DNA of 64,000 nucleotides from Candidatus Omnitrophota bacterium (GTDB lineage: Bacteria > Omnitrophota > Gorgyraeia > Zapsychrales > JANLHA01): the NCBI GenBank assembly GCA_022711395.1, contig JAKLFA010000004.1, positions 70,361-134,360 on the forward strand, read 5' to 3'. The notes under the pieces were generated by a model. It saw only the letters and a program-made list of their open reading frames with translations. It was not told the origin of the DNA and did not search any database. Made by a program: the position numbers and the translations under genes. Of the stretch, positions 20,888-36,117 are shown piece by piece (position 1 is the stretch's first letter; each line of letters begins with the position of its first letter).

Positions 20888-23800
20888 TTATAACATCAAT
20901 GCTTCCTGCTCCTCACGGATCATTTGGCTCAATTCACGACCCGGGGCTTCCCCAGAACCCTCATCCGACCCAAGCAAAAACGGCAACGTCTGCACCGGAG
21001 TCGTATTGATAAGGATCGGGACAAATCCTTCAATGCGCATCTCTTTGATGGGCTGTTCCGGCAAAGGCAGCGGGATCCCGCGGTCATCACGGCGGATCTG
21101 CAGGTCCAGAAATTTAGGGTTCAAATCGATACCACCGACCGGAACCCTATCACTTTCACCGGAAGCCCTTCCCAAAACAGCAGAATTGACCATTTCCTGC
21201 TCGCGCATTTCCCGTCGGTCTGCCAAAGACTGCCAGGCCGAGGCCAGTTCCTGGCGCACGGCGCGTTCATAATCGGCACTGACACTCTTTCCGCTGGCAC
21301 GATCAGCATCGATCTGGCGCAATTCTGTTTCTTTAGCAAACACCCTCCTTAAATCCGCCTGATCGGACATCAACCGTTCCCGATTCAATAAAGACAATTT
21401 TTCAGAGAATCTCCCCGGCCCTTCCTGTTTTAAAAACTCCCTGACCTCACTAAAAGTCGCCCCGCCATTAAGATCATACGCCGCCATCACCCAGGCAATA
21501 CTTACAGCATCTTCAGCGGCTTCCCGTGACATTTTAGAAGCTTCCTGCGCCGCAGAAACAACGTCAAACGCGTTTCCAGTCCCCTCAAACAAGCGCTTGA
21601 CCTTTTCTTTATCAGAGGCCTGTATCCCCAGCTCCGTGGCGAACGCTTCAACAGCATGGTCAATGATCGTCGGATTACCATTGGCGGCGACCTGACGGGA
21701 TTCAAAACCTGAAGCCCCGGTCCCATTCAAAACAGCTTCAAAAAGCCGGCCATATTCACGGACCATCGTATGAATATTGACCCTTTCATGGGCGGAGCGA
21801 AACGACCTCTCCATTCCCTTTAAAAGCTCGTCAGAGCCCCGTTCTACGTAATCATAGTATTGCTGCGCCGCCTCGGTCATGTAATCGCCGAGCTGCCGCT
21901 GCGCTTCCCGATGAAAGGTCTCGAGCACTCTCGGATCTTTATTTTCAAATCCTCGAATGACATCATCCAAAGACCACTCCTTAAAAACATCGATCAGCCA
22001 GCCATTCTGACCATGGACCACCCAATCCAACGGCCCACCCGTCGCCGTGGCAATGACCTTACGCCCATTGAACCCAGCGCGCTGATCGCTCGTACCCGAA
22101 GCCTCTCGGGTGTGGCGCGGTAAAACCAGCCAAAAGTCGCTGGCCGAGACTGCCAGCCGCATGATCTCCACACCGGTATCCGGAACAAAAACGATCTTTC
22201 CTTTCAGTTCAGGACGGTTCTGCAGTTCACGAAAACGCCTGGCCCAATCCTTTCCGACATCATCACGCCCAGGCCCGCCGATAAAAAGATTAGACCCTAA
22301 GCCCTTACGCCTCCCCCAAGGCGTGTCATATTCCTGTTCCCGATCTCCCGTGATCCAACGGACCAATTCAAGCAAAAGCCCCTGTTCCTTATATTCCACC
22401 AAGCGGCGTAACGCACCGAATATCGGACGGTTCAGATCAGTGAACTGATTATAACCTTTGCTTCCCAGCCACTGATTGAGGTCTTCCTTGGCCTGCTGCC
22501 CAGACTCAAAAAGGTCCTGTCCGGTGATCTGTTCCATACCCTTTTGATGAATGCGGGACGCCAACTGCGGTGAATACCACTGCTTTGGATCAGAGCCGTT
22601 CTGAACACCGGTCGTCTTCCAGCGTTGATTGGGAAGAACCAGCCTCTTTGTAACTTCAGCGTGTTCTAACGAAACCCCATTAACGACAGATGACATGTGT
22701 GCCAAAGCTTCCGCCGCGTTAACGACCCGATGGTCGCCATCCTGAATGACGATCGAATCAGGGACCAGGTCATTGCCCAGGGCACCTCGAAGCCAGTTCA
22801 CATCATAAAAGACCGGCAGCGCCGCCCGTTCCGGAGTATGCGTTGTCATGACCACACGGGAAGCATCAAAGACGCTCTTTGATCCATTATTCATACTTTT
22901 GAAAAAATCCCGGTCATTCTGCATGGCCACTGCCACAAACAGCATCTGCGGCTCGCTCAAACGGACGATATCCGGGGAGATCCCGACTCTTTTCACCAAT
23001 TCAACAAAAGCCCTTCCGATAAAACCGTATTGCACGATCTGTTTTGTCCCATCGGGATAAATATTCTCAAAGATCTTCGGCTGACGAAGCAAGAACACAG
23101 GCGTGCCGTTGCGGTTAACCCAATACACGTCGACCGGATAATCTTTAGTGTGATTGAACTCCACATTAAACGATAAAGGAACAAGCTCTCCGCGCTCATT
23201 GCGGACCATGACCCTCTTGATCCCCTGTTCGTTATCCCAGTCGATCCTTTGACGATCCTGTCCCTCCTGATAATATTCATACAACGGCATCACGCCGATC
23301 GAAGAAAACTTCCGAAGGTCCCGGTAAGCCCCCCAGGTCTCACCGGTCAAAAACCCAAGGCCGCCTTTCCCCTGAGCGTTTTGCGCTAATCCCTGGAGTT
23401 CAGGCAAAAACGCTTCCAGCGACACATCCGCCACGACTTTTTTTCCGCCGGAGCGCTGAAAAAAATCATCCAACGGTGTTTCCTGAAAGCGCAAAACAGC
23501 CGCATTGGTCGGACGCGAAACATCTTCAACAGCTTCAGGAGTGGCATTTTCCACCAAACCCACATCCCGCCAGGCGCGCGTGGATCCGGGCACGCCCTGC
23601 AAACCCTTGCGCACAAGCCGCGCACTGTTGCGTCCAAGATCTTCCAAACGGCCTCTCAAGCGCCCCGCCTCAACTTCTTTTGTCAAACCTTCAGGGTCAA
23701 ACCCGCCGGAAAAATACCGGCGAGGGATGACCTGCTGAACAGACGGATCGTACTCTTCCTTAATATAGTCGTAGACCCCTTTGCGGAACGCATCCAAATA

Positions 23801-24769
23801 CTGTTCATAGATCTTGTTCTTTATCTCCCGGTCATCGATATCGATCCCCTTGATCTTGTTCTGATCAACATAGACCGTCGACAAAAGACTTTCCTTTAAC
23901 GCGACCTTATACCACGTCGCCAGGACCATCGCATTGTAGATCTGACGCAAGCGGGCGAAATTCTGCCCTTCATTCACTTCTTTTTCGATCTCAGGGATCA
24001 AGACCTCCCGGATGACCTGCGAAGACACATCATTGGCGATCTTCGCATTCTCCTCCTTAAGGTCCTGAAGACCAAACGCTTGATCATTCAACCCTTCTTT
24101 TAAAGCTAAATAATCCTCTTCCAGCATGACCTTAAGGCTGCTTTGGACCACGTAGGCCGCCCCGTCATACTCATAAACAACAGCTTCTTTGGGGACGATC
24201 CATATCTTGTTAAAGGTCGCCATCGGGATCTCGGTCGTCCCAAAGGCCTCTTTAGCTTTTTTATGCACACGCTGCCAAAAATCTTTTCCCAGGCCCTCTT
24301 CGGGATACATCAGGCTTGCTGTCAATTGTTTCAAAAGGTAATCCTGCGCCAAAAGGTCCGTACCCATTTCAGTCACTCCAAAGGACGGCGGAATGATGCG
24401 GTCCCCTTCATATGGAGAAAGGTTAACCCACATCTCCTCTTCAGGAACGGTCAAGGCCGCCAAAAAATAGCGGACCATCTTCAGCGTTTCCTGATCAAGC
24501 GCTTCATCCTTAAGATCGGAATTGCCGGTATCAATAAGAAATGAGAACTGAAGCGGATTGACCGGGTCAGGACGAATACCGGTAATAACAGCAGGAACAT
24601 ACCCGGGGCTGGTGGAAACCATGGTTCCCGGAAGAGGTAAAGATGGTAAAATTTGTGCGGAGGAATTCAGCGGAGGAATTACAAGGGTGAAACAAAAGAT
24701 GAAAACAGTAACTAAACTAATGACGCGTTTAAAATAATGGGCTTGTTCTTTTTTACAAATGCAATTCAT
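20888..24769 (-). CDS. Giant exported multidomain protein: signal peptide, a conserved N-terminal module shared with the next gene, a GT35 alpha-glucan phosphorylase-like core (PLP Lys apparently replaced by Arg), a helical region, and a shared C-terminal PLPLP module.
   Basis: 1293 aa. A Sec-type signal peptide (MNCICKKEQAHYFKRVISLVTVFIFCFTLVIPPLNSSAQ) is present. Residues ~40-360 are about 70% identical to the N-terminal module of the 1570-aa neighbour. GT35 motifs are GGLGFLTGETWG, MTTHTPERAALP, VNGVSLEHAEV and EASGTSDQRAGFNG (consensus EASGT[SG]NMK). The C-terminal GGIDLNPKFLDLQIRRDDRGIPLPLPEQP...GFVPILINTTPV segment matches the neighbour's C-terminus. Confidence 0.8.
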   Translation of the reverse strand: MNCICKKEQAHYFKRVISLVTVFIFCFTLVIPPLNSSAQILPSLPLPGTMVSTSPGYVPAVITGIRPDPVNPLQFSFLIDTGNSDLKDEALDQETLKMVRYFLAALTVPEEEMWVNLSPYEGDRIIPPSFGVTEMGTDLLAQDYLLKQLTASLMYPEEGLGKDFWQRVHKKAKEAFGTTEIPMATFNKIWIVPKEAVVYEYDGAAYVVQSSLKVMLEEDYLALKEGLNDQAFGLQDLKEENAKIANDVSSQVIREVLIPEIEKEVNEGQNFARLRQIYNAMVLATWYKVALKESLLSTVYVDQNKIKGIDIDDREIKNKIYEQYLDAFRKGVYDYIKEEYDPSVQQVIPRRYFSGGFDPEGLTKEVEAGRLRGRLEDLGRNSARLVRKGLQGVPGSTRAWRDVGLVENATPEAVEDVSRPTNAAVLRFQETPLDDFFQRSGGKKVVADVSLEAFLPELQGLAQNAQGKGGLGFLTGETWGAYRDLRKFSSIGVMPLYEYYQEGQDRQRIDWDNEQGIKRVMVRNERGELVPLSFNVEFNHTKDYPVDVYWVNRNGTPVFLLRQPKIFENIYPDGTKQIVQYGFIGRAFVELVKRVGISPDIVRLSEPQMLFVAVAMQNDRDFFKSMNNGSKSVFDASRVVMTTHTPERAALPVFYDVNWLRGALGNDLVPDSIVIQDGDHRVVNAAEALAHMSSVVNGVSLEHAEVTKRLVLPNQRWKTTGVQNGSDPKQWYSPQLASRIHQKGMEQITGQDLFESGQQAKEDLNQWLGSKGYNQFTDLNRPIFGALRRLVEYKEQGLLLELVRWITGDREQEYDTPWGRRKGLGSNLFIGGPGRDDVGKDWARRFRELQNRPELKGKIVFVPDTGVEIMRLAVSASDFWLVLPRHTREASGTSDQRAGFNGRKVIATATGGPLDWVVHGQNGWLIDVFKEWSLDDVIRGFENKDPRVLETFHREAQRQLGDYMTEAAQQYYDYVERGSDELLKGMERSFRSAHERVNIHTMVREYGRLFEAVLNGTGASGFESRQVAANGNPTIIDHAVEAFATELGIQASDKEKVKRLFEGTGNAFDVVSAAQEASKMSREAAEDAVSIAWVMAAYDLNGGATFSEVREFLKQEGPGRFSEKLSLLNRERLMSDQADLRRVFAKETELRQIDADRASGKSVSADYERAVRQELASAWQSLADRREMREQEMVNSAVLGRASGESDRVPVGGIDLNPKFLDLQIRRDDRGIPLPLPEQPIKEMRIEGFVPILINTTPVQTLPFLLGSDEGSGEAPGRELSQMIREEQEALML

Positions 24770-24890: not shown

Positions 24891-27800
24891 TTAATTCAGC
24901 AAAAAGGAAAGATCTCCCTGAGGGCCCGAAGCCCTTTTTTCCCTTTGCTGTGGAGAATCCGCCACCCCCAAAATAAGCGGGAGATTGCGCACCGGTGTCA
25001 TCTCAATGATCACCGGATAGAACCCGTCGATCTTCAATGTCTCAAGCGGCTGCTGCGGCAACGGCAGCGGAACCCCATTCGCATCACGCTCGATGGTCAA
25101 ATTCAAAAATGCCGGATTGAAGTCGATACCACCTTTTTTCCATCTGGCCTGTTCGGCCATCTGAGCAGGGTTCAAAACAGCGGCATTGGTCTCTTGCATA
25201 AACCCTTCCCATTTAGCAATAAAATCCAAACCTTCAGGGATGTCTTTTAAGCTCTTCAGGTCATGGATCAATTCCTGCGGACTATGCCTAAACGCAGCAA
25301 CTTTTCCCGCTGCCGCTAATTGAGTCACATCGCCGGTAACCATTTCGGTGTAAAGGCTGTCACCTTTCACGCGCAGATACCGCGGCAGATTGACCTCCGC
25401 AACGACTTCTTTTAATCCTTTAATGGAATACCAATTACGGAACGCGTTATAGGGCCATTTTTCTTTTCCGGAGCGATCCAAAACCTGCTGAAGATCCGAT
25501 GTTTTTAGCGCTAATGTTTCTGCCAAAAACGTCTTTCCCGTCGGCTTATGGTGCAAATAACTTCCGCCTTTCTGTCCCTTGGGGTTCCCAACAAGCTCGA
25601 TCCCGATAGCGACACCTTTATCCATCTGGTCCATAAAGTAGGCCAAACGGTGAACGCTCCCGACGTCTTCTGTCCACATGGTGAGGTCATTAACACGCTG
25701 CGTGCGGATGACATCAACTCCGCGGGACTCCAAGACATCTAAAAGATTCTGTTCAACTTTGACAAACACCCCCTGTGCATCCATCGTATAAACCTGGCCC
25801 TGCACTTTGAATTGTTCAAGCGCATAGCCATGGCCCGGAGGCAGCTGTTGGCTATTGCCATTAAAGTGCATTTCACCCTGTTCATCGGGAGAAAACCCTT
25901 TAAAAACCCGGTCGGTCAAAATATAAACATTCTCGCGGTTAAAACCATAAAAATCATTGGCAAACAGATCTTTGGCCGCCTCCTCAAAGATCATGTCATT
26001 AAAATGCACAACGATCTTTGTTTTGGCAATGACATCGTTGATGTCCTTTCCTTGCTCCTGGGCCAGTTTTTCAAGGAATTGACGATACGCGATGATCTGG
26101 CGGGGGCCCATTCCCTGATCAGACTCTGCCAATTTGAGTTCTTGATCATATTTTTGGGCTAGATCCTCTAAATACTTCTTCATTCCAGCCTCATCAAAGA
26201 CCTTGGTCTTCTCATTGGTAAATGTCTCCACCAATTTCTTTTGAAGGCTCGCGCGCTGCTTCTCTGTCAGTTTATTGGGACGGCCTAAAAGCGCCGCTAC
26301 AACATCTTTAATTTCGATGCTGTACATGGACCCTAATCCTAACCGGGTCGCAGCCCCGCCGAAATTGAAATGCGGGGTGATCTTGCCTTCTAGATAGGCG
26401 TTACGGGCCTCGGGCAATCGTGCCTCAACAGCCTTGTATTCAGAAACAACGTCCACCTGGCCAGCCTCGAGGTCTTCAGATTTCACAACCTCACCGTTGA
26501 TCCGAAGCGCGTTGACTTCATTCACCACGCGCTCAAGTTCTTCATCCTGCTTCTCTCGAAGGGCCTTGAAAAAGTCCATTTTTCCTTCAGCGCTCATTCG
26601 GGCGAGCAGATCTACGACGTCCTGCCCCATCTTAGCCTGTTCTTCATCGCCTGACAGAACCGCCGCGTTGGTCGGATCTGCCTCCTTGGGAACAAACTCA
26701 TTGTATTGTGCAATATGCTGCATGGCCCGTCCGAGATCCTGCGGGGCCTTCATATCCCGGATCACTTCCGGTTTTTCCTGATCGCTTTTCATATCCTTTT
26801 GATCATTCAACTGAAAAGCGATTACATCATTCGGAGTAAGGGCGAGCTGCGTGATATCTCCCGTCACCATTTCCGTATAAAAATAAAATTTTCCATCTTT
26901 TTCAACGACCCTCAAATACTTTCTCAATCGGGCGTTTGTCAGCATTTGCTTTAAGCCTGTAACTGTATAAAGATTCCGGAATGCATTGTAGGGCCATTCT
27001 TCTTCTCCGCTGTTATTATACAGTCCCGCGTATTCAGGTGATCTCATGGCAAGCGTTTCAACCAGAAAACTCATTCCTGCCCCACCACCTATATTCTCAG
27101 TGACCCATGTCCCACCTTTTTGTTTTCCCGGATTGGCCACAAGTTCAATTCCAACCTTGGCGCCGTCATTTGCAACTTTATCCAGGAAAAACGCAACTCG
27201 TTTAACACTACCGACATCTTCTGTCCATAAAGAAACATCATTCACGCGTTGAGTACGAATCACTTCAGCCGGTGTTTCCCGACCACTTAACAACTGAAGC
27301 AGGGTTTTATCGATCACCAAAGAAAGAACTCCTTTGGAATCCAGCTTCCAAACCTGCTGAACACGGTTGAACTGCTCCAACGCAAACCCGTGCCCAGGAG
27401 GAAGTTTTCCGCTTTTATCTTCAAATTTTGTACCACCATTATCTGTCAGCGAAAATCCCTGAAACACATCATCAACCAAAACATAAACATTTTCGGCATT
27501 AAACCCATAAAATGAATGCGCCTTCAGATCCTCAATGACATCACTGAAAATCTCTCCGTTCAAATGAACAATGATCGGTGCCTGGTTGACAACTTTCTTA
27601 GCCTTCTCGGGATTTGTCCCATCAGGATCGGCTAGTTTCTCAAGAAAGACCCTGTAAGCGATGATCTGACGTGGGCCCATGGGAATATCTTCACGGCCAC
27701 TCTTATTAAATAAATCGAGCTCTTTTGTTAAAGTCGCTTTAAAACTGTCTAAAGCCTGTTGCCGTTGCTCCGCCGTCCACTCTTTCGCATTTTCTTTTTT

Positions 27801-29603
27801 ATATTTATCCGCCAAATCATCCAAGTATTTCTCAACATTGTTTCTCAATCTTTTCTTTTGTTCATCTGTCAAGCCATTCTCTTGCCCAAGGATATCCTTC
27901 ACCGCATCCGTGATCTTGACTCCATACATCGACCCCACAAAACGTGTTGCCCCGCCGCCAAAGTTGAAATGCGGGACCACTTTTCCTTCTAAATAGCCCT
28001 CTTCGGCTTCGGCCAATCTTTCCGCAGATAACGGATAGCGAGCCAAACTATCAACGCCTTTTCCTCTCCCCAAAGACGTTGGATCAATAACTTTTCCTCG
28101 AATACTCACTTTATTAATACGATCAACTATCGTTTCAATCCTTTTCTTCCAAGATTTTACCTCTTCTTCACTATCTCCTGCCGGTCCCTTCTTTATCTCC
28201 TCAGTCAACGCTTCCCAAGCAACAACAGTTTTCCCATTAATCTGCACTCTTTGCTGGACCAACCCCTCAATATCCCGCCCCATATCATCCTGCAACCGAT
28301 GGCGTTCATCATCTAATATGGAAGAATTAACTTCAGCCGCAGTCGCATTCTCAACCAGGGCTGTGGTCAGATCCACATCCATGGACCCTTCCGGTCCCTG
28401 CAAACCTTCGGCGACTAACGCAAGCTGTTCTTGAGAAAGAACTGCTCCATTGGTCCCATCACCGTTGATGCGGCTTGCGCGGATATTGTCCTGCAGCGTC
28501 CGGCCTTGCGCGTCACGCTGCGCGTCAAACCCGCCGGAAAAATACCGTCGGGGCATGAATTGGCCGGTCAAAGGATCTTCTTCCTCACGGATATATTCAT
28601 AAACACCTTTGCGGAAGGCCTCAACATACTGATCATAAATCGCGGTCCGGGTGGCTTCTGAATCTTCCAGATCCACGCCTTTGACCTTGTTCTGATCCGC
28701 GTAAGCCTGACCCAGCAGCGTTTCTTTCAAACTCATCTTGTACCACGTTGCCAAAACCATGGACTGATAGATCTGGCGGAGCTTGGCGAAATTTTCGCCC
28801 TCGTTCACTTCCTTTTCAATTTCAGGGATCAGGACCTCACGGATCACCTCAGAAGAAACACCACTGATCTCCTCAGCGGCATCATTGGTCTTTACGTTCA
28901 TCCCATACTGCGCATTGCCGATATTTTCACGCAAAGCCACATAATCCTCTTCGAGCATCACCTTCATGGAACTTTTCACAAGATAGGCTGCCCCATCTTT
29001 TTCGTAAACGACCGCTTCATTGGGAACGATCCAGATCTTCGTAAAGGTGCTGAGCGGAATATGCGTCGTGCCGAATTCTTTCTGCGCCCGGGCATACACC
29101 CTGTCCCAAAAGGCCTTGCCCAGATCTTTTTCCGGATACATCAAACTGGCCGAAAGCTGCTTTAACAGATAATCCTGGGCCAAGAGGTCCATGGCCATTT
29201 CGGTCTGGCCGAACGATGCCGGGACCACACGATTGCCTTCATAGGGAGACAAGTTGACCCACAGATCCTCTTCCGGAACGGTCAGCGACGCCAAAAAATA
29301 TTTGATCAATCGGACAGATTCTTCCCGAAGGGCCAAAGGATCAGCCTCCTCGTTTCCGGTATTAACAATAAAATGGAACTGCAACGGATTTTCCGGATCA
29401 GGACGGATGCCTTTGATCAAGACCGGAACATAGGTCGGACTGGTTGTGACCATTGTTCCAACGGCCGGCAATGTGGGCAAAATTTGCGCCTGAAGCGCAG
29501 ATGGCGGAATAATAAATGAGTTTAAGAACGTCAGGACAAGCAGGATCCTAAAGGCTTTAGTAAAAACGGTCTTTTCGGCAGAGTGATTCCGGTGCAGAAA
29601 CAT
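24891..29603 (-). CDS. Giant exported multidomain protein: signal peptide, shared N-terminal module, two tandem UDP-glucose-pyrophosphorylase-family (UDPGP-like) nucleotidyltransferase domains, and shared C-terminal PLPLP module.
   Basis: 1570 aa with signal peptide MFLHRNHSAEKTVFTKAFRILLVLTFLNSFIIPPSALQAQ. The two internal repeats (aa ~520-930 and ~1055-1450) each carry PHFNFGG(G/A)ATR, PPGHG, RTQRVND and KGG(T/S) motifs. These resemble the eukaryotic-type UGPase/UAP motifs LNGGLGT, PPGHGD and VKGGTL. The N- and C-terminal modules are paralogous to the 1293-aa protein. The UDPGP family assignment is from motif recall only, hence moderate confidence. Confidence 0.75.
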   Translation of the reverse strand: MFLHRNHSAEKTVFTKAFRILLVLTFLNSFIIPPSALQAQILPTLPAVGTMVTTSPTYVPVLIKGIRPDPENPLQFHFIVNTGNEEADPLALREESVRLIKYFLASLTVPEEDLWVNLSPYEGNRVVPASFGQTEMAMDLLAQDYLLKQLSASLMYPEKDLGKAFWDRVYARAQKEFGTTHIPLSTFTKIWIVPNEAVVYEKDGAAYLVKSSMKVMLEEDYVALRENIGNAQYGMNVKTNDAAEEISGVSSEVIREVLIPEIEKEVNEGENFAKLRQIYQSMVLATWYKMSLKETLLGQAYADQNKVKGVDLEDSEATRTAIYDQYVEAFRKGVYEYIREEEDPLTGQFMPRRYFSGGFDAQRDAQGRTLQDNIRASRINGDGTNGAVLSQEQLALVAEGLQGPEGSMDVDLTTALVENATAAEVNSSILDDERHRLQDDMGRDIEGLVQQRVQINGKTVVAWEALTEEIKKGPAGDSEEEVKSWKKRIETIVDRINKVSIRGKVIDPTSLGRGKGVDSLARYPLSAERLAEAEEGYLEGKVVPHFNFGGGATRFVGSMYGVKITDAVKDILGQENGLTDEQKKRLRNNVEKYLDDLADKYKKENAKEWTAEQRQQALDSFKATLTKELDLFNKSGREDIPMGPRQIIAYRVFLEKLADPDGTNPEKAKKVVNQAPIIVHLNGEIFSDVIEDLKAHSFYGFNAENVYVLVDDVFQGFSLTDNGGTKFEDKSGKLPPGHGFALEQFNRVQQVWKLDSKGVLSLVIDKTLLQLLSGRETPAEVIRTQRVNDVSLWTEDVGSVKRVAFFLDKVANDGAKVGIELVANPGKQKGGTWVTENIGGGAGMSFLVETLAMRSPEYAGLYNNSGEEEWPYNAFRNLYTVTGLKQMLTNARLRKYLRVVEKDGKFYFYTEMVTGDITQLALTPNDVIAFQLNDQKDMKSDQEKPEVIRDMKAPQDLGRAMQHIAQYNEFVPKEADPTNAAVLSGDEEQAKMGQDVVDLLARMSAEGKMDFFKALREKQDEELERVVNEVNALRINGEVVKSEDLEAGQVDVVSEYKAVEARLPEARNAYLEGKITPHFNFGGAATRLGLGSMYSIEIKDVVAALLGRPNKLTEKQRASLQKKLVETFTNEKTKVFDEAGMKKYLEDLAQKYDQELKLAESDQGMGPRQIIAYRQFLEKLAQEQGKDINDVIAKTKIVVHFNDMIFEEAAKDLFANDFYGFNRENVYILTDRVFKGFSPDEQGEMHFNGNSQQLPPGHGYALEQFKVQGQVYTMDAQGVFVKVEQNLLDVLESRGVDVIRTQRVNDLTMWTEDVGSVHRLAYFMDQMDKGVAIGIELVGNPKGQKGGSYLHHKPTGKTFLAETLALKTSDLQQVLDRSGKEKWPYNAFRNWYSIKGLKEVVAEVNLPRYLRVKGDSLYTEMVTGDVTQLAAAGKVAAFRHSPQELIHDLKSLKDIPEGLDFIAKWEGFMQETNAAVLNPAQMAEQARWKKGGIDFNPAFLNLTIERDANGVPLPLPQQPLETLKIDGFYPVIIEMTPVRNLPLILGVADSPQQREKRASGPQGDLSFLLN

Positions 29604-29811: not shown

Positions 29812-31248
29812 TTATTCACAAAAACTTTGCCCGCGACGACACAATTCCTTGGCATATTCGGTCCAAAGTCCTGACCCCCAATAGCGGAAACAGCTGGTTT
29901 GTGACAACAGCAGATACAAAAACGCATTCTGATACGCGCTGGATTGAACTTCTTTTTGGGTTGTGCCCTTAAATTTTCGATGGAATGCCGCACTCAGCTG
30001 ATTAATAGGGTCCATGACGTCCCCATAGCCGGCGACCCAATCCCGGTCATTGGTCCAGGAAGCCCTGTCCAGATTAAAACCCCGGTCTTTCTGTTTGATG
30101 CGGTCAATGGCTTGATCAGCCGCACCGGGGCCGTAGTTGCCGTTCATTTCAGACCAGATCCTGTGTTGATTGATCGGTTGGACAGGCAAAAAGTCCTTCT
30201 CCAAAACCCCTTCTTTTTTCAAAAGATCCAAGTATTCCGAACCGTTCAAACCCACGACACCGGTTGTGCCGACCCCATCAAACCCGATATTATAATCTCT
30301 CGGAAATTCATTCATCATGACCCCGCCGTTTTCCCCATCGCCGATCTGTAAAACATACAAAGGAATATTCTTGCCGGCATAATCTTCACGCCCGCGGCCA
30401 CGGGCCTCGGCCAACGGCTGCATTTGCGCGACAAGCTTAGTGTCCGATCCCTGGGTCTTGACCAGCACCGTGATCTCCAGTGTTTCGCCCAGCGAATTTT
30501 TAGCGATCAAACGATGCGGAAGATGCGGGCGGCGGATGCCTGAACCGTCGGGATTCTGGATCGTATGCTCCTGGACCATCAGCCATTCATATCCGCATTC
30601 TTTGAGCGCCTTGACATATTCATAACATTGATCCGGATGGATCGGAAGATGCATCTCCGGCGGAGAAAAGCCCTTGACCCGGCGGACAGCCTCTTCACCA
30701 AAAACAGCCGCGAAATGTTTGCGCCATGCCATGATATGCAGTTTCAGATCAGGAATAGGTGTCGAGGTCGCCACCGCATGAGACCACGTGGTTCCCAGCC
30801 ACTCGGCGTGCGTGAAATATTTCGGGTCACAAACGATCCCGCGTAATGTTTCGATCGTGTCCGAGGCCCCCATTTGAGGGATCCCCCACAAAAGATTGCC
30901 TGAATAATCGAGCATGATCCGCGGATTTTTTCCCCGGCCGACCAGATCCGGAATGAACTGCCCCATGCGCGTGTAGCACTGCAGAAAGACCGGCGCATTG
31001 TGATTATCGCCGACGCCCTGATTATCCATCATGTGTTTCAGATTCGAGATCAATGAGGCATTGCGCAAGTCACCGGCCCCCGCGGGGATCGTCGGCTGAT
31101 GCATATGCAGCGCGATACCGAAGGATGCCTGCAGATCCTTTAGGCGGACATTCGAAACTTTCGCGTAATCAAAATTCGGCCTTAACGCCTCAACATCTTT
31201 GGGAGTAAAAAAAATATCAGGAAGCCCATTGGAAAGGATACCGTTCAT
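29812..31248 (-). CDS. Glycoside hydrolase family 57 protein (alpha-glucan-active; exact specificity unknown).
   Basis: 478 aa with the GH57 HxHQP signature (ALHMHQPTIP). It sits in a block with the GH57 branching enzyme and the glucan synthase. Confidence 0.6.
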   Translation of the reverse strand: MNGILSNGLPDIFFTPKDVEALRPNFDYAKVSNVRLKDLQASFGIALHMHQPTIPAGAGDLRNASLISNLKHMMDNQGVGDNHNAPVFLQCYTRMGQFIPDLVGRGKNPRIMLDYSGNLLWGIPQMGASDTIETLRGIVCDPKYFTHAEWLGTTWSHAVATSTPIPDLKLHIMAWRKHFAAVFGEEAVRRVKGFSPPEMHLPIHPDQCYEYVKALKECGYEWLMVQEHTIQNPDGSGIRRPHLPHRLIAKNSLGETLEITVLVKTQGSDTKLVAQMQPLAEARGRGREDYAGKNIPLYVLQIGDGENGGVMMNEFPRDYNIGFDGVGTTGVVGLNGSEYLDLLKKEGVLEKDFLPVQPINQHRIWSEMNGNYGPGAADQAIDRIKQKDRGFNLDRASWTNDRDWVAGYGDVMDPINQLSAAFHRKFKGTTQKEVQSSAYQNAFLYLLLSQTSCFRYWGSGLWTEYAKELCRRGQSFCE

Positions 31249-31269: not shown

Positions 31270-32877
31270 TTACTGAATATAATGTTTGGCGCAATCCATG
31301 TCCGAAAATATATTATCACGCCATTCGACTTCCGCCAACCAATCTTCATCGATCTGGTCTTGCAGAATGTCCTCGTAAAGTTTGGTGAAACGGGCAATGT
31401 GCAACCGCACCCGGCGGTTGGCATACGGGACCATGGTCCCTGATTTCATGATGAACGGCCAATCGCTGGCCTCGGCTAGAAGGAGCTCGCGGGCCGCTTG
31501 GTTCAAAGCACGGCGGACCAAGGTCGGCTGGGGGGTCTTGCGGGCAAATTTGGATTTATATTTAGTAGCGATCTCCACCATGCGTTCCCCGGCCTTATGG
31601 ATATGCCGATAGATCCAGTCATTGCCGCCTTCAAGCCAATATTCACTGTAACCTTTATATCCCCAGCTAGATGTCGAAGGAACAGCCATCTGGTTCGTGG
31701 AATATTCCGCCAGATACTCCGACGGAGTAATGGGCTTCACCGTATCCTGGTCAAAATGCATTTTCCGGAAAAGAAAATCCAGGAACATCGGACCTTCATA
31801 CCACCAATGGCCGTAAAGCTCAGCGTCATACGGCGCAACGATCATGGGTTTGCGGTCCATGTAGCGGGTCAGATGCTCGACCTGCTTCTCACGGTTAAAA
31901 AGAAAGTTTCCCGCGTGCTGCGCGGCCTTCTCCCTGGCCCAATCGGGGCGGTAAGCCTCCTTATATTCGCTCTTGCCTGTGATGCGCCAATATTTAATGC
32001 CGGTATTGACCCGGATCCCCGACGGATGAATGTAGGGCTTGATATAATCGTATTCCAGCTCATGGCCGATATCCCGGTAATATTCACGGTAATCCACGTC
32101 CCCCGGATAGCCTTCCTGAGCGCTCCAGACCTGTTTAGAAGATTCCCAATCACGTCCAAAAGCCGCCACACCTGCCGGCGTATAGATCGGCGCGTAAACA
32201 CTGTAACGTGGCCTCGGGTCAGCATTGATGATCCCGTGCGAATCCACGAAAAAATATCTTAAGCCCGCCTCCTTTAAGATCTCCTCCACGCCCGGCACAA
32301 ACCCGCATTCCGGAAGCCATATCCCTCGGGGTTTACGGTCAAAGACTTTTGTGTAATGCTCGACCGCGACCTGGACCTGCGCCTTGGCGACCTGCGGGTT
32401 CACGCCCAAGATCGGCAAAAACCCATGCGTGGCGCAGCAGGTGATGATCTCAAGGGCCCCGATATCCTGAAAATACTTGAACGCGCTGACAATGTCGCGG
32501 TTCAAATCCTCGGCGAAGAGCTTGCGGAATTCACGGAACCGGTGATTATACATGAGCGCCAGCCCATGATAATGCGGCTCGTAACCCGTGCGATGGATCT
32601 CCTGCTCGGAGAGTTGAATAAGCTTGTCCAGATGGCGAATGTACCGTTCCTGCAGAAGCGGGTCCTGAAGCATATTGATCAACGGCGGCGTCAAAGACAT
32701 CGTGATGCGGAACTTGACCTTGTCCCTCACAAGCCCGTCAAACACCTTTAAAAGGGGAATGTAGGTCTCTGTAATGGCTTCATACAACCAGTTTTCTTCG
32801 AGAAAATATTCTTCTTCAGGGTGGCGGACAAAAGGCAGATGCGCATGTAAAACTAGAGCGAGATATCCTTTGGGCAT
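31270..32877 (-). CDS. GH57-type 1,4-alpha-glucan branching enzyme.
   Basis: The N-terminus LALVLHAHLPFVRHPEEEYFLEENWLYEAITETYIPLL is near-identical in pattern to the Thermus/Thermococcus GH57 branching enzymes. The downstream blocks HGFLPILG, YDAELYGHWWYEGPMFLDFL and LLLAEASDWPFIM also match. Confidence 0.85.
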   Translation of the reverse strand: MPKGYLALVLHAHLPFVRHPEEEYFLEENWLYEAITETYIPLLKVFDGLVRDKVKFRITMSLTPPLINMLQDPLLQERYIRHLDKLIQLSEQEIHRTGYEPHYHGLALMYNHRFREFRKLFAEDLNRDIVSAFKYFQDIGALEIITCCATHGFLPILGVNPQVAKAQVQVAVEHYTKVFDRKPRGIWLPECGFVPGVEEILKEAGLRYFFVDSHGIINADPRPRYSVYAPIYTPAGVAAFGRDWESSKQVWSAQEGYPGDVDYREYYRDIGHELEYDYIKPYIHPSGIRVNTGIKYWRITGKSEYKEAYRPDWAREKAAQHAGNFLFNREKQVEHLTRYMDRKPMIVAPYDAELYGHWWYEGPMFLDFLFRKMHFDQDTVKPITPSEYLAEYSTNQMAVPSTSSWGYKGYSEYWLEGGNDWIYRHIHKAGERMVEIATKYKSKFARKTPQPTLVRRALNQAARELLLAEASDWPFIMKSGTMVPYANRRVRLHIARFTKLYEDILQDQIDEDWLAEVEWRDNIFSDMDCAKHYIQ

Positions 32878-32943: not shown

Positions 32944-34398
32944 TCACGCGGCGGCGTCTTCACATTCAACATTTGAAATTTCGCCGTACTCGGTCTTATC
33001 CCGACCGGCAGCCGTGATGATCGAACGTTCGTGTTTCTTATTAAAAGACACAGCCTTAAAATCCAACGGAATATGGGTATCCGTCGGAAGGGCCATCCGT
33101 AATGTAAACGTCCCGTCTTCGCGCAACGGAATGACCTTATCTCCCCAAGTAACTGTCGCGTTAGGTTCCGTCCGGCCGTAAACGATCAATTCCGTTCCAA
33201 GCTCAAAGAAGAATCCCTCTTGGGGTTTCTGACGCTCCGAAGCGCCCCATGAAGAAACCAGCTCGCTGGCTCCTCCTAAGATCTCAACCGTGGGCCGGAT
33301 CTTTCGCCCGCGCATCCATGTTTCTTCTGATGCGCCTAAAAGCATCTTTTTGAAATAATCATATCCGGGAAGGTCCATATCTTCCAGATATTCCAGCATG
33401 ACATCACCTTCCATATCCGTTGCGATCGGTTGCTGGCCACGGCTTTTGCGGCGCTTCAAGATCTTTCTCAAAAGCGGGAACAAGCGGGAATAATACGCCC
33501 TGATGTCCGCTTCGGTCAAAAAGACCTTGAAACGGCGACCATGCGCCGGAACGGATGCCGGAAGCAAACCTTCTTCTTTCTCTCCGGGTTCAAACGCATA
33601 AACATACGGTTGAACCCCGGGAGCCCCTTCCGCTCCTCCTTCAGCTGCCGCATGTTGAACATCCATCCAGACCAGTTCTGAACGCGGAGAAATATATTCC
33701 CTGGGAGTTGTGACACAATTAGACCGCGCCAACGTGAAGAATCTCCCGTCCGGAGCGCGCAGACCGATATCCGCGCAATATGTCACATTATCGCTCCAAA
33801 GGTTGACGTACCAATTATTGGCATCCCTTCCAACAACCACATCAAACCAATGATTGGCGTTAGTGCCGTTGAAATCCACGAACGTCACATCATAAAGCCG
33901 CAGAACATGCACGCAGCGGCCCACTTCATCGCCGATCATAGCCCGCACGTCATCAACCGAAGAAGAGGCGATCTCCCAATACGCATGCACCCAATGCGGA
34001 TCACGCGCCAGAAGAGTGATGCTCGTAGACCCATAATTCTCCGGCATGATCTCGCTGTCCACAAAAACAGCTTTTTTAACACGGCTGACATGATCTAAAT
34101 TGTTCTGGATCATCCCCTGGATCTTAGGATGGTTCATACTCCTGGCAAGGGCGGATTCGACCCTGGCAGACGGCTCCTTGGGCAATGATGCTTTTTTGGT
34201 TGAGCGGGATTTTGCAACCGTAGACTTGACCCTCGGCTTCTTAATCGTTTCCTTTTTAACCGCTGCGGTCTTTGATGATGCCTTTTTCACAGCAGGCTTC
34301 TTGGCAGTTGCTTTTTTTAAAACTTTTTTTATGACTTTTTTGACTGTATCATCCGCCACCATTGACTCCTTAGGTTCCGTAAATTGACAAGACCTCAT
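32944..34398 (-). CDS. Protein with a Lys-rich histone-H1-like N-terminal tail, a DUF4912-like domain and a C-terminal beta-sandwich.
   Basis: The N-terminal tail is KKVIKKVLKKATAKKPAVKKASSKTAAVKKETIKKPRVKSTVAKSRSTKK. DPHWVHAYWEIASSSVDD resembles DUF4912, which I recall as frequently adjacent to GH57 genes. The C-terminal region reads FFFELGTELIVYGRTEPNATVTWGDKVIPLREDGTFTLRMALP. Confidence 0.45.
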   Translation of the reverse strand: MRSCQFTEPKESMVADDTVKKVIKKVLKKATAKKPAVKKASSKTAAVKKETIKKPRVKSTVAKSRSTKKASLPKEPSARVESALARSMNHPKIQGMIQNNLDHVSRVKKAVFVDSEIMPENYGSTSITLLARDPHWVHAYWEIASSSVDDVRAMIGDEVGRCVHVLRLYDVTFVDFNGTNANHWFDVVVGRDANNWYVNLWSDNVTYCADIGLRAPDGRFFTLARSNCVTTPREYISPRSELVWMDVQHAAAEGGAEGAPGVQPYVYAFEPGEKEEGLLPASVPAHGRRFKVFLTEADIRAYYSRLFPLLRKILKRRKSRGQQPIATDMEGDVMLEYLEDMDLPGYDYFKKMLLGASEETWMRGRKIRPTVEILGGASELVSSWGASERQKPQEGFFFELGTELIVYGRTEPNATVTWGDKVIPLREDGTFTLRMALPTDTHIPLDFKAVSFNKKHERSIITAAGRDKTEYGEISNVECEDAAA

Positions 34399-35530
34399 CC
34401 GCTATAATGTCCCATGAAAACACGGACTCAGCTGCGATGCGGCCATTACGGCCCATCCAACGGGCATCATCAAAATCTTCGAACAGCGTCCCGATCCCCC
34501 AGGCGATCGATTCCGGATTATCAGAAATCTTCAGTCCATTGACCTCATGCCAGACGATCTCTGAAGGACCGCCTTTGTCGCTTGCCACAACAGGCTTACC
34601 AGCGCTCCAGGCCTCCAGGATCACGATCCCGAACGGCTCGTTGCGGCTGGGAACGCAAACACAATCCGTCGCCTTAAAGAGATCCTTCAGCTTCCATCCA
34701 TTGACATGGCCCAAGAACCGGCAGGCATGCTTAACGCCCATGTGAAGGGCCTGCTCCTCAACCTGCCGCCTCATTTCGCCATCCCCGGCAAAAACAAATT
34801 TTGTGTTGGGATAATAATTCAAAACATACGGGATCGCGCTTACCAAAAGGTCCACACCCTTTTGATAGACCATGCGCCCCACGAACAAAACCATCGGGTC
34901 CATCGGCCCAATATCATACATCCTCTTAACGCCGGCCGGCTCGATCCAGCCGTCAAACTGGCGATAATCAATCCCGTTATAGACCACATCCACCTTCTCA
35001 TTCGGCGTGCTGTAGATCCATTGCACTTCATTTTTTAAGGCATGCGAAACAGCGATCACATGGTCTGCTTCATAACAAGCTTCCCATTCAATATGGCGAA
35101 TTCGCTCAGAATTGCCTCCAAAGAAATTGTTTCCGCAACGCCCATACTCTGTTGAATGGATCGTAAAAACCGTATGATGCGCCCTTCCCTTTTTAATCCA
35201 ATACATTGCAGGGGCCGCAAGCCAGTCATGCGCATGGATCACGTCAAAACGCCCGACATGGTCTTCTGTTTCAAAAAATGAATTGCAAAAAGACCGGCAC
35301 ATATTATGGATCTCTTCAATAAAATTTTGATTGGAATCAAAAGGGCAGCGGTGATAATGAACACCGTGTATGCATTCATGACGCGCGTGATTAGGGCGTC
35401 CCATCCGGGTAAAAACATGAACTTCATGTCCCTTACGCTGAAGGGCGCAAGCGAGTTCTGTCACATGAAAGGCCACCCCTCCAATATAGATCGAATGAAC
35501 AGCCTCCCAAGACAAAAGTGCAATACGCAT
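34370..35530 (-). CDS. GT4-family retaining glycosyltransferase, probable alpha-glucan (glycogen) synthase.
   Basis: The N-terminus MRIALLSWEAVHSIYIGGVAFHVTELACALQRKGHEVHVFT is typical of the GT-B glycogen/glucan synthases found next to GH57 branching enzymes. The C-terminal GT-B half carries E..G motifs (LEAWSAGKPVVASDKGG). Confidence 0.6.
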   Translation of the reverse strand: MRIALLSWEAVHSIYIGGVAFHVTELACALQRKGHEVHVFTRMGRPNHARHECIHGVHYHRCPFDSNQNFIEEIHNMCRSFCNSFFETEDHVGRFDVIHAHDWLAAPAMYWIKKGRAHHTVFTIHSTEYGRCGNNFFGGNSERIRHIEWEACYEADHVIAVSHALKNEVQWIYSTPNEKVDVVYNGIDYRQFDGWIEPAGVKRMYDIGPMDPMVLFVGRMVYQKGVDLLVSAIPYVLNYYPNTKFVFAGDGEMRRQVEEQALHMGVKHACRFLGHVNGWKLKDLFKATDCVCVPSRNEPFGIVILEAWSAGKPVVASDKGGPSEIVWHEVNGLKISDNPESIAWGIGTLFEDFDDARWMGRNGRIAAESVFSWDIIADEVLSIYGT

Positions 35531-35532
35531 CT

Positions 35533-35995
35533 CTAAACAAGCTCCTTTACCGAATTTAAGGTGCCATGCGGGTTGAATACCGTGGCCTTGTTATGAGGAT
35601 CAATCTGCCATTCTCCATCCACAAAAAATTTATACTCATAACGTCCAGGCCCGGGCAGGGTAACCTTTCGGCGCCAGACACCATCTTTAAACCGTTTGAG
35701 CGGGATCTTGCGGTTCCATCCCGTAAAATCACCAATAACCGCAACTTCAGAAGCGTTCGGGCATGGCCAGATAAAATCAATGGCCTTCTCTTCTTTGGAA
35801 GAATCCCCTTTCATCAGTTCATCAGCCTTAACACCAAGAACTTTCGCAATATCTTTAAGCACAGACGCTTTCAGCTCTCGTTTGTTTGATTCCCACAAGC
35901 AAATCGCCTGACGTGATACGCCAAGCTCTTCAGCTAATTTTTTTTGAGTGAATTTTCGCTTTTGTCTGACTCGTTTGAGATTTTCACCGAACATA
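35533..35995 (-). CDS. XRE-family HTH transcriptional regulator fused to a CBM48/AMPK-beta-type glycogen-binding domain.
   Basis: The HTH is LKRVRQKRKFTQKKLAEELGVSRQAICLWESNKRELKASVLKDIAKVLGVKADELM. The C-terminal domain (WPCPNASEVAVIGDFTGWNRKIPLKRFKDGVWRRKVTLPGPGRYEYKFFVDGEWQIDPHN) matches the early-set glycogen-binding fold (CBM48 / isoamylase N-terminal domain) of AMPK beta and GlgB N-termini. The track ORF starts at 36030. I prefer Met13 (ATG at 35995), which has a GAGGA RBS 6 nt upstream. Confidence 0.7.
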
Positions 35996-36021
35996 GATGT
36001 CCTCACATGATGAACAGAAAA

Positions 36022-36042
36022 TGTTAACAAGGCGTTAACATC
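36022..36042. promoter_or_regulatory. Perfect inverted repeat ATGTTAAC-aaggc-GTTAACAT in the 5' leader of the XRE-CBM48 regulator gene; candidate autoregulatory operator.
   Basis: Exact 8-bp arms, located 27-47 bp upstream of the preferred start codon and downstream of the putative promoter. Confidence 0.4.
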
Positions 36043-36089
36043 GTGAAAATTTTCAAGAAATAAAAATTAAAAACAAACCGCACTATCAA

Positions 36090-36117
36090 ATTGTATACAT
36101 TTTGTTGACTTTGTCAA
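36090..36117 (-). promoter_or_regulatory. Putative sigma70-type promoter for the XRE-CBM48 gene (-35 TTGACA, 16-bp spacer, -10 TACAAT). The -35 lies within a TTGAC-ttt-GTCAA palindrome that also gives a TTGACT hexamer facing the divergent GT-C gene.
   Basis: Read on the minus strand: TTGACAAAGTCAACAAAATGTATACAAT. The palindrome spans 36105..36117 on the plus strand. Confidence 0.3.

Follow-up and report, generated by a model that had tools for sequence, protein, structure and literature searches.

Bacterial glycogen genes are controlled by global signals and small molecules, and we know of no regulator of these genes that binds the polymer itself. MalT and the LacI-type MalR bind small oligosaccharides in dedicated sensor folds (STAND and periplasmic-binding-protein-like, respectively); to our knowledge, neither uses a carbohydrate-binding module (CBM) or is expected to bind polymer. 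The RsgI anti-sigma factors, which act with SigI in Clostridium thermocellum, span the membrane and have a CBM that senses extracellular plant polysaccharide. The plant proteins PTST and FLO6 carry a module of the CBM48 family and target starch synthases to the granule, PTST having coiled coils and no DNA-binding domain. Here we analyse a 64,000-nucleotide stretch of a Candidatus Omnitrophota genome (contig JAKLFA010000004.1 of assembly GCA_022711395.1, positions 70,361 to 134,360; hereafter the window), which encodes a small protein that joins an XRE-type helix-turn-helix (HTH) domain to a CBM48. A first-pass annotation, made from the letters of the window, had taken it for a glucan-controlled transcription factor with a palindromic operator in its own leader. 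We think the chances about even that it is a cytoplasmic autorepressor of the alpha-glucan (glycogen-like) synthesis operon that it heads, with the glucan-binding module tethered to it.

The open reading frame (ORF) finder had placed the gene at 35533..36030 on the minus strand, with a TTG start and 165 aa. The true start is almost certainly the ATG at 35994, which gives 153 aa, because a GAGGA Shine-Dalgarno sequence precedes it and the relatives all begin at the equivalent M-(F/I/V)-G (the coordinates of all features are collected in Table 1). The annotation of a Candidatus Omnitrophota metagenome-assembled genome (MAG) includes a protein, P0001, with exactly the same sequence. The product holds two folded domains, with no further Pfam domain and no hydrophobic segment visible in the sequence; a DNA-binding and a presumptive sensor domain thus share a single soluble polypeptide, and the protein is presumptively a one-component regulator of the XRE type with a CBM as its sensor. 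Pfam, matches to sequences in the PDB, an AlphaFold2 model and Foldseek all bear out the architecture given in the first-pass annotation. The profiles it had named (HTH_3 plus AMPK1_CBM and CBM_48) match above their cut-offs, and the peptide it had quoted is present in the protein. The AlphaFold2 model, built from 23 family members, consists of an N-terminal five-helix bundle, a low-confidence linker and a C-terminal beta-sandwich. Its mean predicted local distance difference test score (pLDDT) is 89.3, and the predicted template-modelling score (pTM) is only 0.54, so that there is no fixed arrangement between the two domains.

The C-terminal domain is recognised by Pfam on about residues 72-149, as AMPK1_CBM (PF16561; 57.2 bits, cut-off 26.8) and as CBM_48 (PF02922; 33.2 bits, cut-off 22.4). 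A PDB sequence search with the C-terminal half returned the CBMs of AMPK beta1 and beta2 (E about 1e-8), SEX4 and LSF1. Foldseek superposed the domain on the glycogen-binding domain of AMPK beta1 (1z0m_B) with a target TM-score of 0.92 and a root-mean-square deviation of 1.4 Å over 85 columns, at 33% identity. In rat AMPK beta1, residues W100, K126, W133, L146 and T148 contact carbohydrate, and their mutation abolishes glycogen binding (McBride et al., PMC2642990). In the HMMER alignment these positions are occupied in the regulator by W93, K122, W129, H143 and T145, in that order, and N147 corresponds to N150. W93, K122, W129 and N147 are invariant in 23 of 23 aligned family members, which are otherwise just 49-85% identical to the window protein; T145 is kept in most of them, and of the contact positions only the L146 equivalent varies. 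Since the carbohydrate-contact residues of AMPK beta are kept, the module is expected to bind alpha-1,4-glucan, and it looks like a working binder of chains such as glycogen or maltodextrin.

It is quite improbable that the module has lost carbohydrate binding and now serves dimerisation or contact with a protein partner, such as the operon's own GT4 synthase or DUF4912 product. CBM48-like modules in AMPK do make protein contacts as well, and the variability of the L146 position (H143 in the window) would fit such a change of role. However, the other sugar-contact positions named above have stayed invariant at this level of divergence, the AMPK CBM on which the fold superposes so closely is the cyclodextrin-bound form, and the gene is always linked to alpha-glucan enzymes. 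Two whole-protein identities were also considered and rejected. The regulator is not an AMPK beta subunit: Pfam finds no AMPKBI alpha/gamma-interaction domain, and the protein ends 4 residues past the CBM48 match. Nor is it an RsgI-type anti-sigma factor, as Pfam shows no membrane or anti-sigma domain and the protein has just 153 aa.

Residues 3-63 match HTH_3 (PF01381) at 55 bits (cut-off 23) and HTH_19 at 55.4 bits (cut-off 30.2), and a PDB sequence search with the N-terminal half finds the P22 C2 and 434 repressors. In the AlphaFold2 model this half adopts the five-helix bundle with a helix 2-turn-helix 3 unit that characterises the HTH fold (helices 2-12, 17-24, 28-35, 43-53 and 57-61; pLDDT 85-94, about 90). 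The recognition-helix residues S27, R28, Q29, A30, W34 and E35 are invariant in the family alignment. We infer that the domain binds the candidate 17-bp dyad described below in a sequence-specific manner. A type II antitoxin or prophage repressor was considered and rejected: there is no adjacent toxin gene or phage module, and the gene lies in conserved metabolic synteny instead. In an NCBIfam scan of the regulator, the RstR, DicA and HipB families all scored far under their cut-offs.

The two domains are joined by the least certain part of the model, residues 61-70 having a pLDDT of 65, its minimum. Across the family the length of the linker ranges from about 10 to about 70 aa. Such a variable and, as modelled, flexible connection argues against a defined allosteric interface and for a tether.

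A consensus scan predicts a sigma-70-type promoter upstream of the gene, with 11/12 consensus matches. Its -35 element TTGACA is kept at all related loci, and the HTH-bearing loci share the pattern TTGACA-AAG-TTAACA-NNN-TGT(G)NCATAAT. The perfect palindrome noted in the first-pass annotation is present exactly as described, 27-47 nt upstream of the start codon. Its core, the leader operator candidate OL, lies at about +44 to +60 relative to the transcription start, which is predicted to be near 36083. That annotation had missed a second copy of the motif, the promoter operator candidate OP, between -35 and -10. OP and the OL core are two copies of one 17-bp pseudo-dyad with the consensus GTTAACA-N3-TGTKKMM (GTTAACA-N3-TGTTAAC-like), the core of which is AAC-N5-GT. 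All 23 sites have A5, C6, G12 and T13, and 22/23 have A4. A leave-one-out matrix trained on leader sites only gives OP 14.7 bits, and OP is the top match of the window, at 20.1 bits, under a combined matrix that includes the window's own two sites. As an operator the palindrome is credible, in that its motif recurs at orthologous loci and tracks the HTH; it is, however, the secondary site in the leader, and OP is the better placed of the two.

Within the 64-kb window, the palindrome has no match other than itself even with 3 mismatches (0.14 expected), and no further operator copy is convincing: the next best matrix match scores at most 10.8 bits, and relaxed patterns return the known site only. 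The conserved copies are found at related loci. Leader sites equivalent to OL are present at L001, L002, L004, L007, L011-L014, L016, L018, L089 and L094. The equivalent of OP is recognisable by eye at 22/22 HTH loci and scores at least 8 bits at 16; at L011, L012, L013 and L014 the motif is present chiefly as a strong leader site, and L016 and L094 give matrix matches only near threshold. Applied to promoter sites that were not in its training, the leader-only matrix gave 21.7 bits at L015, 18.1 at L019, 16.0 at L010 and 15.8 at L038. OP and OL are 70-77 bp apart in the window's clade and 35-42 bp apart elsewhere. Operator looping by conserved helical phasing is unsupported, as the spacing is unphased across loci over this range.

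The palindrome lies within the predicted transcript and folds as an 8-9-bp stem, and it might instead act as an RNA hairpin in the 5' leader, on stability or translation. We rejected this reading, which we hold to be very improbable indeed, as there is neither excess folding energy nor covariation. The leader folds no better than its shuffles (z = -0.85; 44/200 shuffles). Across 13 loci 64% of cells pair, versus 62% in shuffles (as many or more in 130/500), and no pair other than the innermost two is kept at every locus. It is the sequence of the left half-site that is conserved, the right half degenerating without compensation, and the same motif is found in the promoter spacer, which is not transcribed.

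The motif tracks the presence of the HTH domain: all 22 HTH loci examined have it, and 11 loci whose operon begins with an HTH-less CBM48 protein do not. The best score per locus is 8.1-21.7 bits at 17 HTH loci and at most 9.2 bits (median about 4.6) at 11 CBM48-only loci, a difference between HTH and HTH-less loci with a Mann-Whitney p = 7.5e-6, which is optimistic given that the loci are phylogenetically non-independent. Five further metagenome loci, obtained afterwards, score 9.7-20.1 bits, and the locus that encodes an HTH without a CBM48, L038, also has the motif. In an unbootstrapped neighbour-joining tree of the GT4 proteins, HTH and HTH-less loci are interleaved: L020 and L036, which have no HTH, fall within the HTH clade, and L010 and L038, which have one, fall within the other. 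The motif therefore follows the HTH rather than one lineage.

The regulator is the promoter-proximal gene of a minus-strand alpha-glucan operon, in the order regulator, GT4 synthase, DUF4912 protein, GH57 branching enzyme, GH57-like protein and two giant proteins. It had been said to close the alpha-glucan locus, which is wrong: it comes first, its stop codon 2 nt from the ATG of the GT4 gene at 35530. The AAGGAG Shine-Dalgarno sequence of the GT4 gene (35542-35547, minus strand) sits within codons K150-E151 of the regulator, and the GT4 gene is probably translationally coupled to it. The same Shine-Dalgarno sequence is encoded by the conserved C-terminal motif ...NSVKE(L/I) of the regulator, the conservation of which may be partly due to this coupling.

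About 30 proteins, at 47-97% identity, have the same HTH-CBM48 architecture. Among one genome per GTDB species, full-length matches were found at 11 loci (8 Omnitrophota, 2 "uncultured Planctomycetales" and 1 unclassified), and a metagenome scan gave at least 6 more, two of them near-identical. A profile search of 1.84 billion representatives had a top dominated by multi-CBM48 and multi-HTH repeat proteins; among the matches listed were six full-length single-copy fusions (P0017, P0117, P0120, P0124, P0145 and P0182), and Pfam confirmed both domains in 5/5 of those submitted. The family is essentially confined to Candidatus Omnitrophota. The same search surfaced poly-HTH proteins (P0047, P0054, P0171 and P0178) with 4-11 tandem XRE HTH_3 domains, the most extreme having 11 copies in 1002 aa, an unusual architecture unrelated to the regulator. 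Another protein, P0039 (JGI metagenome 3300041967, on a 2-kb contig), has 209 aa that comprise an N-terminal CBM48 and a C-terminal DksA/TraR C4 zinc finger; here, independently, a glycogen-binding module has been fused a second time to a domain of transcription-factor type.

The link to alpha-glucan genes made in the first-pass annotation holds well beyond the window: it is seen at 23 distinct related HTH loci, and at 22 of these GT4 directly follows the regulator. The remaining locus, L011, has no detectable GT4 gene in the interval from the regulator to DUF4912. With this exception, the order regulator-GT4-DUF4912-GH57 branching enzyme-GH57-like protein is kept wherever there is enough flanking DNA, at regulator identities of 39-90%. 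The gap between regulator and GT4 is 0-10 nt at most loci and reaches 94 nt at L012. The genes upstream of the regulator vary between related loci.

The first gene of the operon occurs in three natural variants: the fusion, a stand-alone CBM48 and an HTH alone. The stand-alone CBM48 proteins, of about 95-115 aa and with a Lys-rich tail, are encoded at L020, L021, L028, L030, L032, L036, L055, L061, L062, L066 and L075, and CBM48-only operons occur in other Omnitrophota and in a Nitrospinota MAG. The HTH alone is the 75-aa product of L038:6001-6225, with the GT4 gene directly after it. Because the variants interleave in the GT4 tree, the HTH may have been repeatedly gained or lost at the operon head, as the tree suggests. 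At two CBM48-only loci, a soluble HisKA_3 kinase and a NarL-type response regulator are encoded immediately upstream (L062:4354-5757 and L066:4405-5792), and a response regulator of the same type, recognised by sequence only, has the same position at a third (L028:5202-5861). The promoters of L028, L030, L032, L061, L062 and L066 carry a different conserved palindrome, AAGCA-N4/5-TGCTTATTTAC. The same glucan operon seems to have been placed under different local regulators, by regulator replacement.

In 12 of 14 long-linker fusions the linker itself encodes an in-frame AGGAG-type Shine-Dalgarno sequence and ATG. In L005 (8166-8240) this internal start reads GAT AAG GAG GGG AAA ATG; the other loci are L010, L012, L013, L015, L017, L018, L019, L090, L091, L092 and L094. 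We take this to be the footprint of two formerly separate genes, and the start is possibly still used, to yield a free Lys-tailed CBM48 as a second isoform. The window's clade (146-153 aa, with a linker of about 10 aa) has lost the internal start, and its regulator is an obligate fusion.

This history would also suit a protein whose two activities are not coupled, the CBM48 being an accessory of the synthesis machinery (for instance for GT4 targeting, in the manner of PTST and FLO6) and the HTH a constitutive autorepressor joined to it by read-through between neighbouring genes. The same operon does begin elsewhere with a CBM48 on its own, long-linker relatives retain the trace of a former pair of genes, and a neighbouring two-component system apparently takes over regulation in one clade of the CBM48-only loci. 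We nevertheless judge an uncoupled protein unlikely: with the internal start lost and the linker so short, the obligate fusion has been kept across orthologues that are 55-85% identical, and mass action will couple the two activities of any protein able to bind polymer as well as operator, except where the pools are never in competition.

The autorepressor that we favour would work by titration rather than by classical allostery. The HTH domain, presumably dimeric, would recognise the 17-bp pseudo-dyad at OP and OL; bound to OP, in the spacer from -35 to -10, the protein would keep RNA polymerase off the promoter, and OL, in the transcribed leader, would serve as an auxiliary site or a roadblock. 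The CBM48, on its flexible linker, would bind glycogen or maltodextrin chains, and glucan-bound repressor would be withdrawn from the operators. As the operon encodes its repressor first, the synthase and branching-enzyme genes would then be transcribed more strongly the more free glucan binding sites there are. Titration is favoured because the short, flexible and length-variable linker speaks against an allosteric interface, because the HTH-only protein of L038 suggests that DNA binding has no need of a CBM48, and because a circuit of this kind could naturally build on an autorepressor encoded first in its operon. The polymer and the operators would, we infer, compete for the protein. The full proposal, in which a transcription factor of a bacterium directly gauges a storage polymer inside the cell, as an autorepressor titrated by glycogen chain ends through its CBM48, is a tentative one, possible rather than probable.

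Several points weigh against this picture. AMPK-type CBMs bind oligosaccharides only at 0.3 to >1 mM (PMC2642990). That CBM48-only and HTH-only variants occupy the same operon position indicates that the domains can work separately, and the fusion may not couple them; as such single-domain relatives exist, coupling of the HTH to glucan is plausible and not required. The palindrome is not significant by itself, since a perfect inverted repeat of 8 nt, with a loop no longer than 10, turns up in 10.6% of shuffles of the 237-bp AT-rich intergenic region; its significance comes from the conservation of the motif across related loci. The matrix is unspecific on the genome scale, shuffled windows yielding about 10 matches at or above 10 bits. 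In OP the right half-site runs into the -10 element and owes some of its conservation to the promoter itself; the transcription start is a predicted one. Finally, the direction in which the coupling runs is guesswork, as dimerisation and repression might just as well be strengthened by a glucan scaffold.

In this opposite arrangement, glucan chains would gather monomers through their CBM48, promote dimerisation of the HTH and occupancy of the operators, and glycogen would shut its own synthesis operon. Such negative feedback is the physiologically more intuitive logic for a synthesis operon and has a counterpart in AMPK, where the glycogen-bound CBM inhibits the enzyme, likewise as feedback (PMC2642990). 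Moreover, no separate dimerisation domain is detectable by Pfam or in the AlphaFold2 model, and operators at the distance seen in the window's clade could be bridged. Yet the HTH-only locus L038 keeps the motif and presumably binds it without a CBM48, and the operator spacing, 35-77 bp, is neither conserved nor phased. We consider glucan-promoted repression to be of low probability.

Table 1. Features of the regulator gene, its promoter region and its operon (window coordinates)
Feature	Coordinates	Strand	Basis or details
XRE-HTH/CBM48 regulator gene, 153 aa + stop	35533..35994	-	ORF, start codon, Pfam
HTH_3 / Cro-C1-type DNA-binding domain, aa 1-63, five helices	35806..35994	-	Pfam, PDB matches, AlphaFold2
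Short flexible linker, aa 64-72	35779..35805	-	Lowest-pLDDT block
CBM48 / AMPK-beta-type glycogen-binding module, aa 73-153	35536..35778	-	Pfam, Foldseek, residue alignment
Shine-Dalgarno GAGGA of regulator gene	36000..36004	-	Read from sequence
Leader operator candidate OL, perfect palindrome ATGTTAAC-AAGGC-GTTAACAT	36021..36041	.	17-bp core GTTAACGCCTTGTTAAC, 36023-36039
Predicted sigma-70-type promoter	36090..36117	-	-35 TTGACA 36112-36117, 16-nt spacer, -10 TACAAT 36090-36095
Promoter operator candidate OP, GTCAACAAAATGTATAC	36093..36109	-	Fills -35/-10 spacer, overlaps first 3 nt of -10
GT4/GT5-like alpha-glucan synthase	34370..35530	-	Pfam; best NCBIfam TIGR02149 glgA_Coryne, 170 bits, under cut-off
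DUF4912 protein, Lys-rich N-terminal tail	32944..34398	-	Pfam DUF4912, 118 bits; kept in operon
GH57 1,4-alpha-glucan branching enzyme with BE_C domain	31270..32877	-	Pfam; NCBIfam
GH57-like protein, 478 aa, conserved fifth operon gene	29812..31248	-	Weak Pfam GH57; synteny
1570-aa giant protein	24891..29603	-	No Pfam match
1293-aa giant protein	20888..24769	-	Weak GT5-, GT1- and alpha-glucan-phosphorylase-like regions

The rest of the operon and its surroundings call for a few remarks. The tail of the DUF4912 protein, about 80 aa and Lys/Ala-rich, has a weak histone-H1-like (HC2) match, and similar Lys-rich tails are found on the stand-alone CBM48 proteins of sister loci; in the literature search DUF4912 had only mentions unrelated to the glucan operon. 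The NCBIfam matches of the branching enzyme are to the Thermococcales (341 bits) and Thermus (301 bits) families, both under cut-off. The two giant proteins are paralogues with a homologous N-terminal region of about 430 aa, and they end the operon; their homologue at L001 has 1909 aa, with AlaDh_PNT domains and Glyco_transf_5. Beyond the operon lie PNPase (17490-19595) and then FtsK.

On the other side, a divergent PMT_2 glycosyltransferase gene precedes the regulator. The genes leading up to the regulator at L001 are, in order, PhoU, CBS, Fe-repressor, FeoAB, GT2 and PMT; in the window, about 20 kb (36232 to about 55000) lie between FeoB (56051-58066) and the regulator. The checked ORFs in this interval include the PMT_2 glycosyltransferase, a metallophosphoesterase, two methyltransferases and a polysaccharide flippase, and the interval looks like an inserted surface-polysaccharide cluster. 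At L004 (7363-7815), L007 (7326-7772) and L089 (upstream of 1094) the gene immediately before the regulator encodes a CBS-pair protein of about 150 aa. This recalls the pairing of the gamma (CBS) and beta (CBM48) subunits of AMPK; we treat it as coincidental synteny, as no CBS gene lies near the regulator in the window, and at L001 the two genes are not neighbours.

The first-pass annotation knew of no description of this domain combination, and we likewise found no HTH-CBM48 protein or operon of this kind in the literature searched. Neither XRE nor helix-turn-helix nor "transcriptional regulator" occurs in the accessible part of a comprehensive review on the alpha-glucan enzymes of prokaryotes (Chem Rev, 2024), and there GT4 genes beside GH57 genes are mentioned only as uncharacterised putative synthases. 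If our proposal is true, the regulator would do in prokaryotes, as a single protein, what the AMPK glycogen sensor does in eukaryotes, its CBM would be the first in the cytoplasm to serve as the sensor domain of a DNA-binding regulator, and the output of a synthase/branching-enzyme operon would scale with the available polymer surface. It would also open a way into the gene regulation of the Omnitrophota, a phylum without cultured members, with a possible use in synthetic biology as a compact glucan-responsive switch. Direct polymer sensing is within reach of a test that needs a single small soluble protein, a pair of duplexes of 17-21 bp and glycogen or cyclodextrin from a supplier, and the CBM48-only, HTH-only, long-linker and short-linker operon heads provide natural controls within the family.

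The regulator shares features with several known systems. The nearest structural and sequence relatives of its N-terminal domain are the Cro/C1 (XRE) repressors P22 C2, 434 and CylR2. As with these repressors, each candidate operator is a pseudo-dyad of 17 bp, in which the centres of the half-sites are separated by 10 bp as they are in lambdoid operators, one of the two overlaps the promoter, and autoregulation is proposed. Unlike in these repressors, the C-terminal partner is a carbohydrate-binding module and not a dimerisation or peptidase domain, and the gene, unlike those of the phage proteins, belongs to the chromosome, where it has a fixed place as the first gene of a metabolic operon. 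With MalT and MalR the regulator would have in common the transcriptional control of alpha-glucan metabolism by alpha-glucan-derived ligands. The resemblance to PTST and FLO6 lies in a small non-catalytic CBM48 beside a glucan synthase, a situation paralleled by the stand-alone CBM48 genes that precede GT4 in sister operons; the role of PTST, however, is protein targeting and not transcription. As in RsgI, a CBM is proposed to be the sensor that sets transcription of polysaccharide-related genes; unlike RsgI, the regulator would sense an intracellular polymer and bind DNA directly.

For the C-terminal domain, the nearest relative in both sequence and fold is the CBM of the AMPK/SNF1 beta subunit, the eukaryotic glycogen sensor, and the contact residues are common to both. 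The systems also share a concept, a storage-polymer-binding module joined to a regulator of energy or carbon metabolism (PMC2642990). They differ in that the bacterial regulator is a single polypeptide and its output is an HTH DNA-binding domain rather than a kinase complex.

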